Below are positions 2,342 through 12,265 of a stretch of 29,093 nt of DNA, piece by piece. How positions within the stretch are numbered: the stretch's first letter is position 1; each line of letters opens with the position of its first letter. Below the pieces are notes generated by a model, which saw nothing but the letters and a program-made list of their open reading frames with translations, did not search any database and was not told the origin of the DNA. Made by a program: the position numbers and the translations under genes. Origin of the DNA: an uncultured archaeon (GTDB lineage: Archaea > Altiarchaeota > Altiarchaeia > JAFGQM01); assembly GCA_964592405.1 (NCBI GenBank), contig CAZQBY010000009.1, forward strand, positions 20,087 to 49,179, read 5' to 3'.

Positions 2342-5300
2342 ATGAAATTGGGATACCCTCTGGCAGGAATTAGCATTATAATATTGGTCTTAGGTTTCAC
2401 ATACGCCATAAGCGCAAATACCACAGACAACATCGCCCTCAACACTGATAAGACAAACTATACGCTGGGTGAGACTGTCAATATAAGTCTTACAGCTCCG
2501 GACAATACATCCGCTTCACTGTATCTGCTTCCGCCATCCGGAGATGTCCTCTTTCTGTTGAACAACAAGACAGGTTCATTCTCAACCCTCTACACCCCCC
2601 GGGAGGTCGGCAACTACACCACTGTCTGTGAAGTCCTGAACCTCTCTGCGACACTGAACGCCGACTTCACGGTAACAGGACCGCTCCCGGGGGGGTCAGG
2701 GGGCAACCTGACGAATGTTATGGATGAGGAAAAAGCGCCCGCAGTCAACATCTCCGAGACTCCTTTTTCCAATGGGAGCAGCAGGGAGCCGGCTAACAGG
2801 ACAGATGTCCTGACAGCCAATAGAACAATCGCATCCAACAAGACTGGTTATGAACCTGCCGACAATAGAGACATTCCATCCAACAGAATACCAGAGGTTG
2901 CGCCCTCTGATGCCTCTTTGTTCATAGAAAACAGGACCTATGCACCGGGGGATGAAGTGGTCATACAGCTTTATATACCTGAAAATCTCAGCCCATCTCT
3001 GACGCTGATTACCCCGGATGGAGATGCCCTCTCACTGATGCTCAATGAAACAGGTGTGGTCTGGAAGAGATACACGCCGAGGGAGCCGGGGCATTATAAC
3101 GTCTTTTACAGGATAGCAAAGATCGGAGTGGACCTGAAGGACGCATTTACAGTAATTAATATGACTCTCCCAGAGAATGCTTCAGAGAAGAGTAATGAGA
3201 CTGGGGAAGAAGGTGTTGCATCCAACCGGACAATTCCGTCCAACAGAACAGCGCCATCCTACAATATCACCACCAGTATCACAATCCCCAATGCCTCCAA
3301 TATCACAATTCAAACTGATAAAAGGGAATATCATCCATGGGAAGAAGCCGAAATACGGCTGGAGCTTCTCTCAAACCAGTCATGCCAGTTGGAAGTCATA
3401 ACCCCCTCCGGGGAAGCACTAGTACTCATATCGGCTCATGCCGGTGTATTCTCGGCCCAATACCGCCCGCAGGAGAAAGGAACATATACCGTCACCTGCA
3501 AGCCGCTGAATCTCTCAACAAGATTTACGGTCCTAGAGCCTGTCTTCCATGTCGGCTCATGGCAGGAGGCCAGACTCACGGCAGGAGCAGGCGGGCAGGT
3601 GGCCGCAAAAATACACCGAATCTCGGCAGGCCGTTTGGAGGTTTTCCCAAAATCCACTCCAATTAAAAAAATTGAATTTGACAGCATAAACCTCACCCAA
3701 AGGTTTGATCTTGGTCTGGATGAGATACCCCCGGGGGCGGTTAGCGAACATGATTTCATCCGGGTGTATGCCATAGATCCAAGCAGGCTGGAGTTCGCCT
3801 ATGCCAACGTTACCGTAACCGCCACAGGCACAGAGCTCTACAAGTGCAAAGACTGGGACTTCACCAGCCAGAAATGCCTTGGCGAATGGGAGCTCTTCAA
3901 GAGGGATCTTGTTCCCGGTCAGAACTACACCTTCCAGCTCACTAAGGAGGATCCGGGCTTTGGCGAGAGCATAACGATAATCGACATCCAGAGCTACCCT
4001 ACGGTGGGTGGCAACTGGACTGTTAGGTTCACCACCAACGGAACGGCGAACCTGACGATTACGGCAGTGAACGGGACTACCTGGAGCGACTCCGACGAGG
4101 ACGAGGATTTGAGGTTCCTGGAGGTGAAGTGCGGAGAGGATGTCCTAAGTTATGATTGGGTAGGCAATTCCATCTTCATCGCCGATTATTCCTGCAATGA
4201 GACGGGTTATGAGGTGAGCAGGGTACTGACATCCGGCAAGCACACGCTGGAGTTCAGGTTCGGCGACCAGACGAAGTATGCGCACAATTATGCCGGGTAT
4301 GAGGGCGACAACGTGACCCTCATCTACGCCACCACCTTCGGGCAGGACGTGGAGACCCCGACACCGCTGAACCTGAGCGCGGAGATGCGCAAGGACTCCG
4401 GCTTCACGCACAGCACGACCGTGAACCCGGAGAGGCTCTACGTGAACGTGGCCGGATGGTATAAGGTCTCTTATGGATGCCACTTCACGCAGCAGTCGAC
4501 GGGAACTAACCACCGGCTTATAGTGGAGACCTGGGTTGAGAACACAGGGACGGAGATAGTGCCCAGCAGGACCTCCTGTTACATAAGGGACAGTGAGTCG
4601 GACAGGAACAGGTGCTCCAACAAGGGTACGTTCATAGTCAGTCTGAACGATGGGGACTACCTAGAGCTGTGGGCGAATAAGACGAAGGGTACCGGGACCA
4701 ACCCGGCCACGACGGAGTCCTGCTACATGTACGTCCAGATGGTGAACAACGATGTCGCCCAGATGTACGACGCAGACGGTGAGGATGACTTCCACGAGAC
4801 GAATGAGATAACAGTCAGCATCGACACGACGACCTTCGCGGATTCGGACTTCGCAGCCGACACGGACGAGTATGCGTTGAACGTGACCTCGGGAGGGTGG
4901 TACAAGATATACTACCACACCTGCTCCCACAACTATTTGACTACCAACAGGAACAGCGTTCAGACGTACATAAGGAGGAACGGGACCAAACTAGAGCCGA
5001 GCGATGTCTTCTCATACCTGAGGAACGAGGATGCCGACGGGACCCCCGGAGACCGAAACTGTGAGGCCGGATACCTGCTGTACAACCTGTCCGCCGGAGA
5101 TTCCATCGACATGAGGCACACCAAAATCGGCTGGGAGACCGCCTCCCAAAACTCCAGGACGCTGCCCGGCCAGAGCTGGCTGCTGATGGAGAAGATAAAC
5201 CACAGCGACGTCTTCATGGCCTACGATGAGGACATCCACACCGGGACGACCATGATAAACCTCACCACAAACTACCATGTGGGGAGCTCCTACAGCCACA

Positions 5301-10949: not shown

Positions 10950-12265
10950 GGGAGACTAGGCTCAAACTCCTGCTCATTTTCATCCTAGTTTCCCTGTTGC
11001 CCACCGGCTTGGGGGCGGAGTCGGATGTAGCTGAGGGCGGCATCATCTCGGTTTTGGTGCTTGAACAGTATAACCTAACCGGCTCATGGACCGGCTATTA
11101 TGGGGATCTTCTGGTCTCCGGCAACCCGATAACCGGCTGGATGCTCATATCCAATGTAACCTCCCCCGGCAACATTACCGGAGAAAACATGTCCATCCGC
11201 TGCAGCGACGTCTCGGGCTACCTGCTGATAAGCAACGAGTCCACTGTGCCGGACCTTGGCAACCTCATGCCCGGCGACCTCGCCGTGCTTGACTCAATAA
11301 CAGGAACGGGCCACGACTCCGGGAGCAACACCTTCGACGCTAACACCAGCTTCACGATAGTAGATAAGACCATAGACGACGTTCCCACAGTCTGGATAAA
11401 TGTGAACAGTGAGCAGCAGGACACATACTTCAGGGAGGGCTACATGACGGACGGCGACGCGATAGTCTTTGTCGCTGTCATAGAGCAGGACCAAGTGGGC
11501 TTCGACGGGCGCGAGCACGACTTCCAGTTCATGCTGCCCTACGGCCCAAATGAGAACTATTACATTTACGCCCTCTTCAGCTGCGAATGGTGCGGGGACG
11601 GGATATGCATGTTCGGTGAGGACTGCAAGACCTGCCCGGAGGACTGCGGCGAGTGCGAGGCAGAGATGGTGGAGGGTGAGAAGCCAAAGACCCACATACT
11701 CACGCCGGGGATGCCCATAATCCTGCCTCCGCCAAAGCCTGTCATCAACATCGATCTTATAATGGACCAGGATGTCTATGGGCCGAGAGAAAAGATAGGC
11801 GGTGTGGTGATAGTGGAGTACACAGGGCAGGATACCCTGACAGCTGATCTGGTGCTTACGCTTGGTGATATAGACCTATGGAAGGAGAAAATAAAAGTCC
11901 TGCCTCCATACTCACGCCGGAGAATCCCATTCAGGCTCGATATGCAAACCTCCGGAGGTTATATGCTCAAGGCCTCCATCAGGAACCCTGATTTTGAGGT
12001 AAGGGGAAAGAGATCTGCTGAAGCAAATTTCCTGATAACAATACCAGAGAGTGAGCGAGTACTGGAGATAAATGTCAACATGCCCGGGGCCGTGGTGGGT
12101 TGCAGAGTTTTTGGGATAGACTGCATAGGCATAATATTGATACTGGCCCTGATGGCCATACTCCTGTGCATATTATTGGTCAAGAAACCTCGCAGAGAAG
12201 GGAGAGGGCCACATAGACAGCTGATGGACTGGATGTGGGCTGTAAAATACAACATCAGGAAGTGA
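10946..12265 (+). CDS. Membrane-anchored surface protein: N-terminal putative pilin-like domain, Cys-rich motif, Pro-rich linker, Ig-like domain, C-terminal TM
   Basis: Signal peptide. EGGIISVL..WTGYYG..IVFVAVI..GFDGREHDFQFMLP..YYIYA matches 8411..9103. Contains CGDGICMFGEDCKTCPEDCGEC. TM followed by KKPRR. ATGA overlap with the upstream gene. Confidence 0.75.
   Translation: MRETRLKLLLIFILVSLLPTGLGAESDVAEGGIISVLVLEQYNLTGSWTGYYGDLLVSGNPITGWMLISNVTSPGNITGENMSIRCSDVSGYLLISNESTVPDLGNLMPGDLAVLDSITGTGHDSGSNTFDANTSFTIVDKTIDDVPTVWINVNSEQQDTYFREGYMTDGDAIVFVAVIEQDQVGFDGREHDFQFMLPYGPNENYYIYALFSCEWCGDGICMFGEDCKTCPEDCGECEAEMVEGEKPKTHILTPGMPIILPPPKPVINIDLIMDQDVYGPREKIGGVVIVEYTGQDTLTADLVLTLGDIDLWKEKIKVLPPYSRRRIPFRLDMQTSGGYMLKASIRNPDFEVRGKRSAEANFLITIPESERVLEINVNMPGAVVGCRVFGIDCIGIILILALMAILLCILLVKKPRREGRGPHRQLMDWMWAVKYNIRK

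Follow-up and report, generated by a model that had tools for sequence, protein, structure and literature searches.

We analyzed four genes in a 29,093-nucleotide (nt) stretch of DNA, which we call the window, from an uncultured archaeon of the phylum Altiarchaeota (GenBank assembly GCA_964592405.1, contig CAZQBY010000009.1). Region 2330-12265 of the window consists of these four genes, all on the + strand, which encode the proteins P0001 to P0004. A first-pass annotation, made from the letters alone, had proposed that they encode a filament system with a tip adhesin, a major subunit, a platform protein, and a membrane anchor. We find that the genes belong to a real, undescribed archaeal surface-assembly system, and we favor a model in which this system builds a fiber. 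The genes and their features are listed here, with lengths in amino acids (aa), open reading frames as ORFs, transmembrane segments as TM, and immunoglobulin-like domains as Ig-like:

2342-8284, + strand: P0001, a giant secreted glycoprotein (1984 aa); the ORF opens at TTG 2330, the likely start is ATG 2342, and there is no TM anchor
6848-7291, + strand: Laminin_G_3 domain (concanavalin-like lectin) of P0001, residues 1507-1654, E = 1e-15
7691-8281, + strand: P0001 copy of the shared domain, at the C-terminus; it has just the core (profile positions ~60-211) and lacks the N-terminal arm and the TEGGN motif
8336-8358, + strand: two TATA-like A/T boxes, tttatata (8336-8343) and ttatataaaa, lying 50-75 nt upstream of where P0002 starts; a candidate archaeal promoter, by reading
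8411-9103, + strand: P0002, a small stand-alone domain protein (230 aa), with a signal peptide (residues 1-23), a conserved N-terminal arm with TEGGNIT (24-67), and a beta-sandwich core ending in ETYYFYVELS (68-230)
9122-9172, + strand: five stretches of 5-6 T that immediately follow the stop of P0002; a candidate oligo-T terminator or attenuator
9261-10949, + strand: P0003, which we will call P3; the ORF runs from 9192, the likely start is ATG 9261, and the protein has 562 aa from that ATG
~9327-10130, ~10158-10850, and ~10872-10940, + strand: parts of P3 after its signal peptide, namely three CWB2-like alpha/beta modules, two Ig-like beta-sandwiches, and a TM
10946-12265, + strand: P0004, a membrane-anchored domain protein (439 aa), with a signal peptide, the shared domain, a Cys-rich CxxCGDGxC segment, an Ig-like region, a TM (~12122-12181), and a basic tail
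~11012-11581, + strand: the shared domain as found in P0004, where it opens the mature protein and begins at the EGG motif

The genes for P3 and P0004 overlap by 4 bases. The first-pass annotation had described four co-oriented genes with class I signal peptides, and all of these are present: each N-terminus has a charged n-region, a hydrophobic core, and a small-x-small site (read by eye, with no predictor). In the alignment of the P0002 family, A23 is near-invariant, which fits cleavage by signal peptidase I (SPase I). P0001 and P0002 end in the shared domain and have no C-terminal TM, so the earlier statement that the adhesin and the small protein lack anchors of their own is correct as well. 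P3 and P0004 each have a C-terminal TM followed by a basic tail.

The first-pass annotation had also claimed that one domain of ~190 aa occurs three times at this locus, and sequence comparisons bear this out. P0002 is similar to both the C-terminus of P0001 (BLASTP E = 2e-5) and the N-terminus of P0004 (E = 5e-7). A direct comparison of P0004 to P0001 is not significant (E = 1.1), but a profile links all three copies. Using an alignment of 28 relatives of P0002 (alignment A1) as the basis of a family profile, we found exactly three matches in the whole genome: P0002 (E = 3e-88), the N-terminus of P0004 (E = 6.2e-13), and the C-terminus of P0001 (E = 1.3e-11).

Judging from sequence searches, this domain belongs to no described family; its own family is large and unnamed. 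Neither P0002 nor the P0004 domain matches any family in Pfam or NCBIfam, and none of the 28 family members matches a Pfam binding-module family at E ≤ 1. The domain profile has no match to PDB chains at E ≤ 10, and P0001 and P0004 have no matches among PDB sequences. The first-pass annotation had suggested a fold comparison for the domain; this has been done, and no significant match to any described fold was among the 50 fold matches listed. The best matches, which were insignificant, were to trimeric knob domains, and the weak matches included the lectin-type sandwiches of BclA and rotavirus VP8*. In the ESM Atlas, the relatives are solely archaeal “hypothetical protein” clusters. DUF7096 is no more than a lead: it is a sub-threshold match in 3 of the 28 members (P0023, P0027, and P0029), and it covers only residues 7-71, which correspond to the signal peptide and the arm. 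DUF7096 has no match in the window's genome, and we found no paper that names it. (Among our control genomes, DUF7096 has matches in Haloferax volcanii and Bacillus subtilis.)

Searched against 1.84 billion representative sequences, the profile matched 1547 clusters with E ≤ 1e-3, of which 1089 have E ≤ 1e-10. We pooled the best 150 of the 1547 clusters with the matches from the initial search for relatives of P0002, which yielded 173 family proteins: 116 stand-alone proteins (up to 300 aa) and 57 long proteins (up to 5626 aa). In the long proteins among the best 150, the domain always ends at the last residue or at most 3 residues before it. The C-terminus keeps a fixed register: 126 of 172 proteins have a YY[FVWYIL][FYW] strand exactly 8 residues from the end. 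Stand-alone proteins end in ..YYFYxE(L), with the E in 72/79, and long proteins mostly end in ..YYFYxN, with the N in 30/48.

The long proteins carry varied payloads. Among nine long members that we scanned, six have a right-handed beta-helix (NosD) and two have Laminin_G_3; discoidin and sialidase-type lectin domains were also found. P0001 has 103 N-x-S/T sequons (5.2 per 100 residues), and Laminin_G_3 is its sole significant Pfam domain. Its tip had been called lectin-rich; there is a lectin-type domain, but “rich” was an overstatement because Laminin_G_3 is the only significant lectin-type match. Many large proteins with lectin or beta-helix parts carry the domain at their very C-terminus, which would fit an attachment module for adhesins.

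To see which genes travel with the domain, we used a narrower alignment of small proteins (A2) to fetch 24 loci from one-genome-per-species contigs. These loci are from Micrarchaeota (Micrarchaeia), “ainarchaeum”, Anstonellales, Bilamarchaeaceae, Woesearchaeota, Methanosarcinaceae/Methanosarcinales, Methanoperedens, and one Nitrosotalea bin. The gene neighborhood is conserved across phyla: we will call it the cassette, and it recurs in Micrarchaeota, Iainarchaeota, Woesearchaeota, and Methanosarcinales. A hidden Markov model (HMM) of the P0003 family found P3, either full-length or cut by the contig end, in 21 of the 24 loci, with no match in L022, L037 (which is at a contig end), or L038. The usual order is a small gene, then P3 (~580 aa), and then a larger protein with an N-terminal copy of the domain. 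Many cassettes have one gene per class. Variants have two to five tandem small genes (L040-L045, with five in L041) or a giant gene upstream (L039-L041), and in two loci from Methanosarcinaceae the third place is held by a protein with a C-terminal domain. We also noticed that L043 and L044 (Woesearchaeota bins) and L045 (a Methanosarcinales bin) share a near-identical order of small gene, P3, and small gene, and that their domain copies lie together on very short branches; this likeness suggests a recent transfer between lineages or a binning error.

We then clustered all ORFs from 31 loci against each other. The domain family was present in 31/31 loci and P3 in 27/31, and the next family reached only 7. 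Because only these two families are conserved, the cassette is a two-family system without an ATPase, usher, sortase, or peptidase. Neither the neighboring genes in the window nor the families conserved over the 31 loci include an ATPase, a sortase, an usher, or a prepilin peptidase, which agrees with what had first been noted for the locus itself.

Of 61 genomes from the window's phylum, 6 (in 5 of 31 genera) contain the domain, and full-length P3 (E ≤ 1e-170) is found in those same 6 genomes and in no other. (Six further genomes have partial matches to P3, with E values from 3e-9 to 8e-4.) Five genomes that we examined from other lineages each have a single copy of P3 (5/5) and 2-7 copies of the domain, most of them within the cluster. 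P3 is the most conserved component of the cassette, is single-copy, and is the sole universal membrane component. P0004 does have a TM, as the first-pass annotation had said when it called the 439-aa protein the membrane anchor, but the universal membrane protein is P3 and not P0004.

This patchy distribution indicates an accessory system and argues against an essential envelope layer; we rejected an essential S-layer given the 6/61 genomes. A more general proposal is that the small protein tiles the surface in a two-dimensional lattice or forms a matrix, and that P3 holds this layer as CWB2 proteins hold the S-layer of Clostridioides difficile. The CWB2-like modules of P3 fit this proposal, as do the secretion of the small protein, its sequons, and the promoter-like and terminator-like flanks of its gene. 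Besides the patchiness across genomes and genera, the mature small protein is only ~21 kDa, and the copies of the domain in the giant and in the anchor point to a linear, polar arrangement. We consider a lattice or matrix very unlikely.

The copies of the domain in the cassettes differ in where they begin on the family profile, and they form three classes. Small proteins begin at positions 1-11 in 38 of 41 cases, and the remaining three are contig-cut. Proteins with an N-terminal domain (the anchors) begin at positions 38-46 in 13 of 16 cases, which is at the (T)EGG motif and directly after the signal peptide. The cassette giants begin at positions 57-67 in 8 of 10 cases, at the W-A-G strand, so that the arm is absent. 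The window's own proteins follow the class pattern, with starts at 3 (P0002), 42 (P0004), and 61 (P0001). It is only the cassette-linked giants that are arm-less; giants that bear the arm exist as well.

A maximum-likelihood tree of the domain core (profile positions 68-226) from 66 cassette copies is consistent with these classes. All 16 of the N-terminal-domain proteins lie on one side of a branch, with weak support (SH-aLRT 72), and 9 of the 10 cassette giants, together with one contig-cut row, form a clade with support of 92. Since both the N-terminal-domain group and the giant clade span phyla, the three roles of the domain are old.

The arm itself is conserved and includes residues that rank among the best conserved of the domain. 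G50 and G51 are invariant in the 28-sequence alignment, and a GG-N-x-S/T sequon is found in 85 of 116 small proteins and 47 of 57 long proteins; the sequon is kept while its letters vary. In the predicted monomer structure of P0002, residues 22-61 have a confidence score (pLDDT) under 50 and are the sole long stretch of low confidence, and the core has pLDDT of 78-94. Segments that fold against a partner typically show this pattern, conserved yet unplaced in a monomer model. We also noticed an R-W pair in the arm (profile positions 36-37), ~30 residues before the invariant R/K-W-A-G (66-67) of the first core strand, so the arm may partly duplicate that strand.

Turning to P3, its AlphaFold model, built with 29 sequences, has a pLDDT of 88.8. 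In this model, the signal peptide is followed by three alpha/beta modules at residues 23-290, two beta-sandwiches at 300-530, and a TM helix at 538-560. The profile of the P3 family has a match with E = 3.5e-13 to Cwp6 of C. difficile (5j72_A) in its CWB2 region (residues 117-317), which upholds the “CWB2-like” label from the first-pass annotation. By itself, P0003 is below the Pfam threshold for CW_binding_2 (16.2-16.4 bits, with a cut-off of 24.9); among the 29 family members, 12 match CW_binding_2 (best E = 3.9e-7) and 6 match CARDB. Like the Cwp proteins of C. difficile (5j72, Cwp6), P3 has three tandem alpha/beta modules in its N-terminal half. Unlike them, it is archaeal and is fused to two Ig-like domains and a TM, and we do not expect the PSII wall polymer to be its ligand.

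No catalytic domain is apparent in P3 from the model and the profile comparisons. The top Foldseek matches include transglutaminases and factor XIII, but these matches are to their C-terminal beta-barrels (230-300 aligned columns and TM scores of 0.15). We dismissed a relation to these enzymes because the aligned columns appear not to include the catalytic core. Two other features of P3 are worth recording. In 6 of the 29 members, the TM is followed by a cytoplasmic tail with a zinc ribbon (Zn_Ribbon_1, CxxC...CxxC), as seen in L039, L043, L044, and L045, which hints at a link to something intracellular. And P0003 has no N-x-S/T sequons in 585 residues, versus the 103 in P0001 from the same locus; a glycan-free P3 beside a heavily glycosylated cargo may be meaningful.

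The CWB2-like modules and the lectin-type payloads together suggest an explanation without assembly, in which the domain ties beta-helix and lectin proteins to a glycan of the envelope or of a host, and P3 binds the same polymer. WxL domains were once read as wall-binding modules, before the pilus result, and we count this history in favor of glycan binding here. A beta-helix or LamG payload followed by a C-terminal beta-sandwich also resembles the layout of an enzyme with a binding module, and the weak fold matches to BclA and VP8* are to lectin-type sandwiches. Furthermore, the CWB2 motifs of C. difficile bind PSII, according to the portion of the source available to us (PMC4973711). But binding to a glycan leaves much unexplained: three ancient paralogue classes with different N-terminal boundaries, a free-standing module as the best-conserved member of the family, and the one-to-one phyletic link with P3. 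The 28 members also lack matches to Pfam binding modules, as described above. Overall, we think that glycan binding without assembly is improbable.

The first-pass annotation had stated that the small gene alone has a promoter-like region and a terminator. Candidate signals of both kinds are present at P0002, but P0002 may not be alone in this, as the region upstream of P0001 is AT-rich as well. Across the loci, a run of at least five T lies within 60 nt downstream of 30/40 small genes, 9/24 P3 genes, 4/9 giants, and 4/14 genes for N-terminal-domain proteins; because related loci are not independent, these counts are a tendency and not a statistical test. The tendency after small genes would fit a more abundant small subunit, and tandem paralogues and T runs are both usual for genes of major subunits.

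The tandem copies and the T runs also bear on whether the proteins polymerize at all. The C-terminus of the giant, the small protein, and the N-terminus of the anchor might instead form a small hetero-oligomer on P3, or might each bind P3 directly, in which case there would be no fiber. It is easy to see how such docking would account for the many cassettes with one gene per class, for a domain that is strictly C-terminal on diverse payloads (as surface-anchoring modules are), and for a single universal membrane protein; the best fold matches, insignificant as they are, are to trimeric knobs. It is harder to see why a docking system would have up to 5 tandem small paralogues or oligo-T after 30/40 small genes, and a symmetric oligomer offers no obvious reason why giants and anchors should lack the arm to different degrees. 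Also, a stand-alone module with its own promoter would carry no payload. We judge docking to be unlikely, but it is the alternative that we take most seriously.

We are quite confident that the four genes form one surface-display apparatus: the four proteins would be a Sec-exported surface assembly built from one new beta-sandwich module and a dedicated P3. For its architecture, the reading that we favor, and to which we give even weight for and against, is a Sec-dependent, P3-assisted fiber or stalk of P0002, with P0001 at the distal end and with P0004 and P3 at the membrane. P0002 would be the repeating unit of a thin, non-covalent fiber or stalk, and its N-terminal arm (~45 residues, TEGGN-I/V-T/S) would contact the core of the neighboring subunit. 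P0001 would join via its arm-less C-terminal core and would display its lectin-type domains distally; we place it there because an arm-less core would be able to accept but not to donate. P0004 has half of the arm, plus a stalk and a TM helix, and would terminate the assembly at the membrane. P3 would be a platform or chaperone anchored in the membrane; it would take up subunits once Sec has exported them and would keep the base fixed in the envelope. Polymerization, polarity, and the role of P3 are inferred. The layout resembles that of chaperone-assisted donor-strand pili, and most closely the WxL/Elr pilus, with what appear to be unrelated proteins.

Several observations weigh against this model. 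The monomer model of P0002 looks like a closed sandwich of 11 predicted strands. The long proteins in the top-150 list keep the arm, with 57/57 starting at profile positions 9-40. P3 has no recognizable chaperone domain (PapD_N is a match in 3 of 29 members, but with a best E of 0.0055, which is not significant), and its best Foldseek matches are generic tandem Ig-like barrels. Finally, of 12 complete N-terminal-domain proteins, 3 have no TM and 9 have a TM and a basic tail. (Contig-cut proteins were excluded; six of the tails were identified by pattern and three by reading.) Two of the three that lack a TM are 1067-aa proteins with 69 cysteines. These two are the third cassette genes at L019:7808-11011 (- strand) and L020:3401-6601 (+ strand), from a sister family in the same phylum, and in both the domain lies at the N-terminus, with the cysteines after it. 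A complex prediction for three mature copies of P0002 (with alignment A1) had a median score of 0.29, with the mark at 0.42 and no controls, and we counted it neither way.

The closest counterpart that we are aware of is the WxL (Elr/Csc) pilus of Enterococcus faecalis, whose fiber was solved by cryo-EM and described in a preprint in October 2026. According to the accessible part of that preprint, ElrD, a small WxL protein, polymerizes via an N-terminal donor strand; the adhesin ElrA, which has a WxL domain at its C-terminus but lacks a donor strand, is modeled as the tip; ElrB, which has both a donor strand and a TM/LPxTG, is modeled as the base; and the subunits are primed by ElrE, an Ig-like chaperone that is anchored in the membrane by its C-terminus (bioRxiv 10.64898/2026.10.17.759780). 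Elr-type tip adhesins carry leucine-rich repeat (LRR), beta-helix, or lectin payloads before an invariant C-terminal module, and in the text available to us the system is reported from Bacillota only (bioRxiv 10.64898/2026.10.17.759780). The same text states in its Discussion that archaeal pili that depend on twin-arginine translocation (Tat) assemble without a chaperone or usher, and a term search of it found no mention of DPANN or Methanosarcinales (bioRxiv 10.64898/2026.10.17.759780).

As far as that text describes the WxL/Elr system, the cassette is like it in several ways (bioRxiv 10.64898/2026.10.17.759780). Both divide a single operon into four roles: a large adhesin whose payload varies, a small module protein (~25 kDa in Elr), a TM accessory protein, and a TM base. 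Both have an arm-less C-terminal module on the tip and an N-terminal arm on the small protein, although this feature is only analogous (8/10 giants and 38/41 small proteins here). Both use Sec signal peptides without an usher or ATPase, and both have tipless and anchorless variants of the operon. There are also clear differences. The accessory protein here has three CWB2-like modules and two Ig-like domains, rather than DUF916/DUF3324; the base protein carries the whole domain and not just a strand; there is no sortase or LPxTG in the cassette; and the host is an archaeon. WxL (PF13731) and PF06030 (WxLIP_PGBD/DUF916) have no match at E ≤ 1 in the genome, nor is either found among the 28 family members, with no search aimed at DUF3324 (PF11797). 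By this comparison, the cassette is a putative analogue of WxL/Elr, or a relative beyond detection, and is not a member of it.

The cassette also shares features with archaeal filaments that assemble by strand donation, namely the bundling pili (ABP/AbpA), the threads of Sulfolobus, cannulae, and Tafi/TafE. Within what the available part of the source covers, these have beta-sandwich subunits of ~200 aa and no type IV machinery, their subunits are presumed to be glycosylated, as is the one here, and they have Sec signal peptides, except for the Tat-dependent haloarchaeal Tafi (PMC12337348). These filaments are described there without a giant tip adhesin that shares the pilin fold and without a conserved CWB2/Ig membrane partner (PMC12337348). 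The cassette, in contrast, has a giant protein that shares the subunit's module and a conserved membrane partner. The domain has no PDB sequence match to the strand-donation pilins of TasA, AbpA, threads, cannulae, or TafE, and none of these is among the 50 fold matches listed.

A third comparison is to chaperone-usher pili, and it rests on the two ends of the domain: arm-less cassette giants, and the YYFY strand 8 residues from the end. In chaperone-usher pili, the FimH-type tip comprises an adhesin domain and a pilin domain without the N-terminal extension, and the pilins' conserved C-terminal strand is in a fixed register. Unlike those pili, the cassette has no usher, PapD-like chaperone, or outer membrane, and chaperone-usher pilins appeared in the domain's fold search only with E = 0.9-2.4.

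Three other known kinds of pilus were considered and rejected. A type IV pilus or archaellum does not fit N-termini that read as Sec/SPase I type, and neither an ATPase nor a platform protein is present in the neighbors or the conserved families. A type V pilus of Bacteroidota, in which an arginine protease processes lipoprotein precursors, does not fit signal peptides without a lipobox cysteine (by reading) and conserved neighbors that include no protease. As for a sortase pilus, there is no sortase among the window's neighbors or the families conserved over the 31 loci.

We can state the most ambitious version of the fiber model, which we offer tentatively and regard as somewhat unlikely as a whole. 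The cassette could be the first pathway known from Archaea in which a chaperone or platform assists a donor-strand pilus, and it would have evolved independently of both chaperone-usher and WxL pili; the CWB2/Ig protein would prime a new pilin fold, arm-less giants would cap the fiber, and DPANN episymbionts and some Methanosarcinales would use it to hold their hosts or partners. A bolder sub-reading is that the CWB2-like modules of P3 read an N-glycan on the arm's GG-N-x-S/T sequon, which would make assembly glycan-gated.

The kind of machine that we infer is already known. The cassette, the domain family, and the architecture of P3 all appear to be undescribed. A literature search (supplements were outside its scope) found no description of the cassette among the titles listed and nothing that joins DPANN and CWB2, and a search for WxL, archaea, and donor strands returned the Elr preprint alone. 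It is largely unknown how DPANN archaea, which have tiny genomes and are often attached to other cells, display giant surface proteins, and the cassette is a concrete, testable apparatus for this. It includes a domain family that is unnamed in Pfam or NCBIfam, comprises no fewer than 1547 representative clusters, and has one conserved membrane partner across several archaeal phyla. Its layout converges on a bacterial pilus pathway that was described in October 2026 and that the available text reports from Bacillota only (bioRxiv 10.64898/2026.10.17.759780). If the fiber model is true, then chaperone-style assembly by strand exchange has at least three separate origins, and the pili of archaea include a class beyond type IV and the chaperone-free strand-donation filaments. 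If it is false, the cassette is still a new archaeal mode of anchoring adhesins. Either way, the small protein and P3 are handles for labeling or perturbing attachment to hosts.

The genes that flank the cassette in the window are ordinary archaeal housekeeping genes: lipoate ligase, Fe-alcohol dehydrogenase, a methyltransferase, topoisomerase VI A and B, and geranylgeranyl reductase. With 22 contigs that total 1.13 Mb, the genome is 87% complete. Hydrothermal-vent metagenomes contain near-identical DNA, and the 7 matching DNA sets among those listed are hydrothermal-vent or marine.

Two details of the window remain. Downstream of P0004, a 207-aa ORF for a polytopic membrane protein (12332-12955, + strand) has no match in Pfam or NCBIfam and is not conserved among the other cassettes. 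A tRNA-Asn (GTT) gene at 12893-12966 on the - strand overlaps its 3' end, so the end of this ORF, or all of it, may be spurious. Within P0004, residues 213-238 form a Cys-rich segment (CxxCGDGxC...CxxCxxDCGxC) that is shared with the homologue from the same genus (at L016) and is found in none of the other 14 N-terminal-domain proteins.

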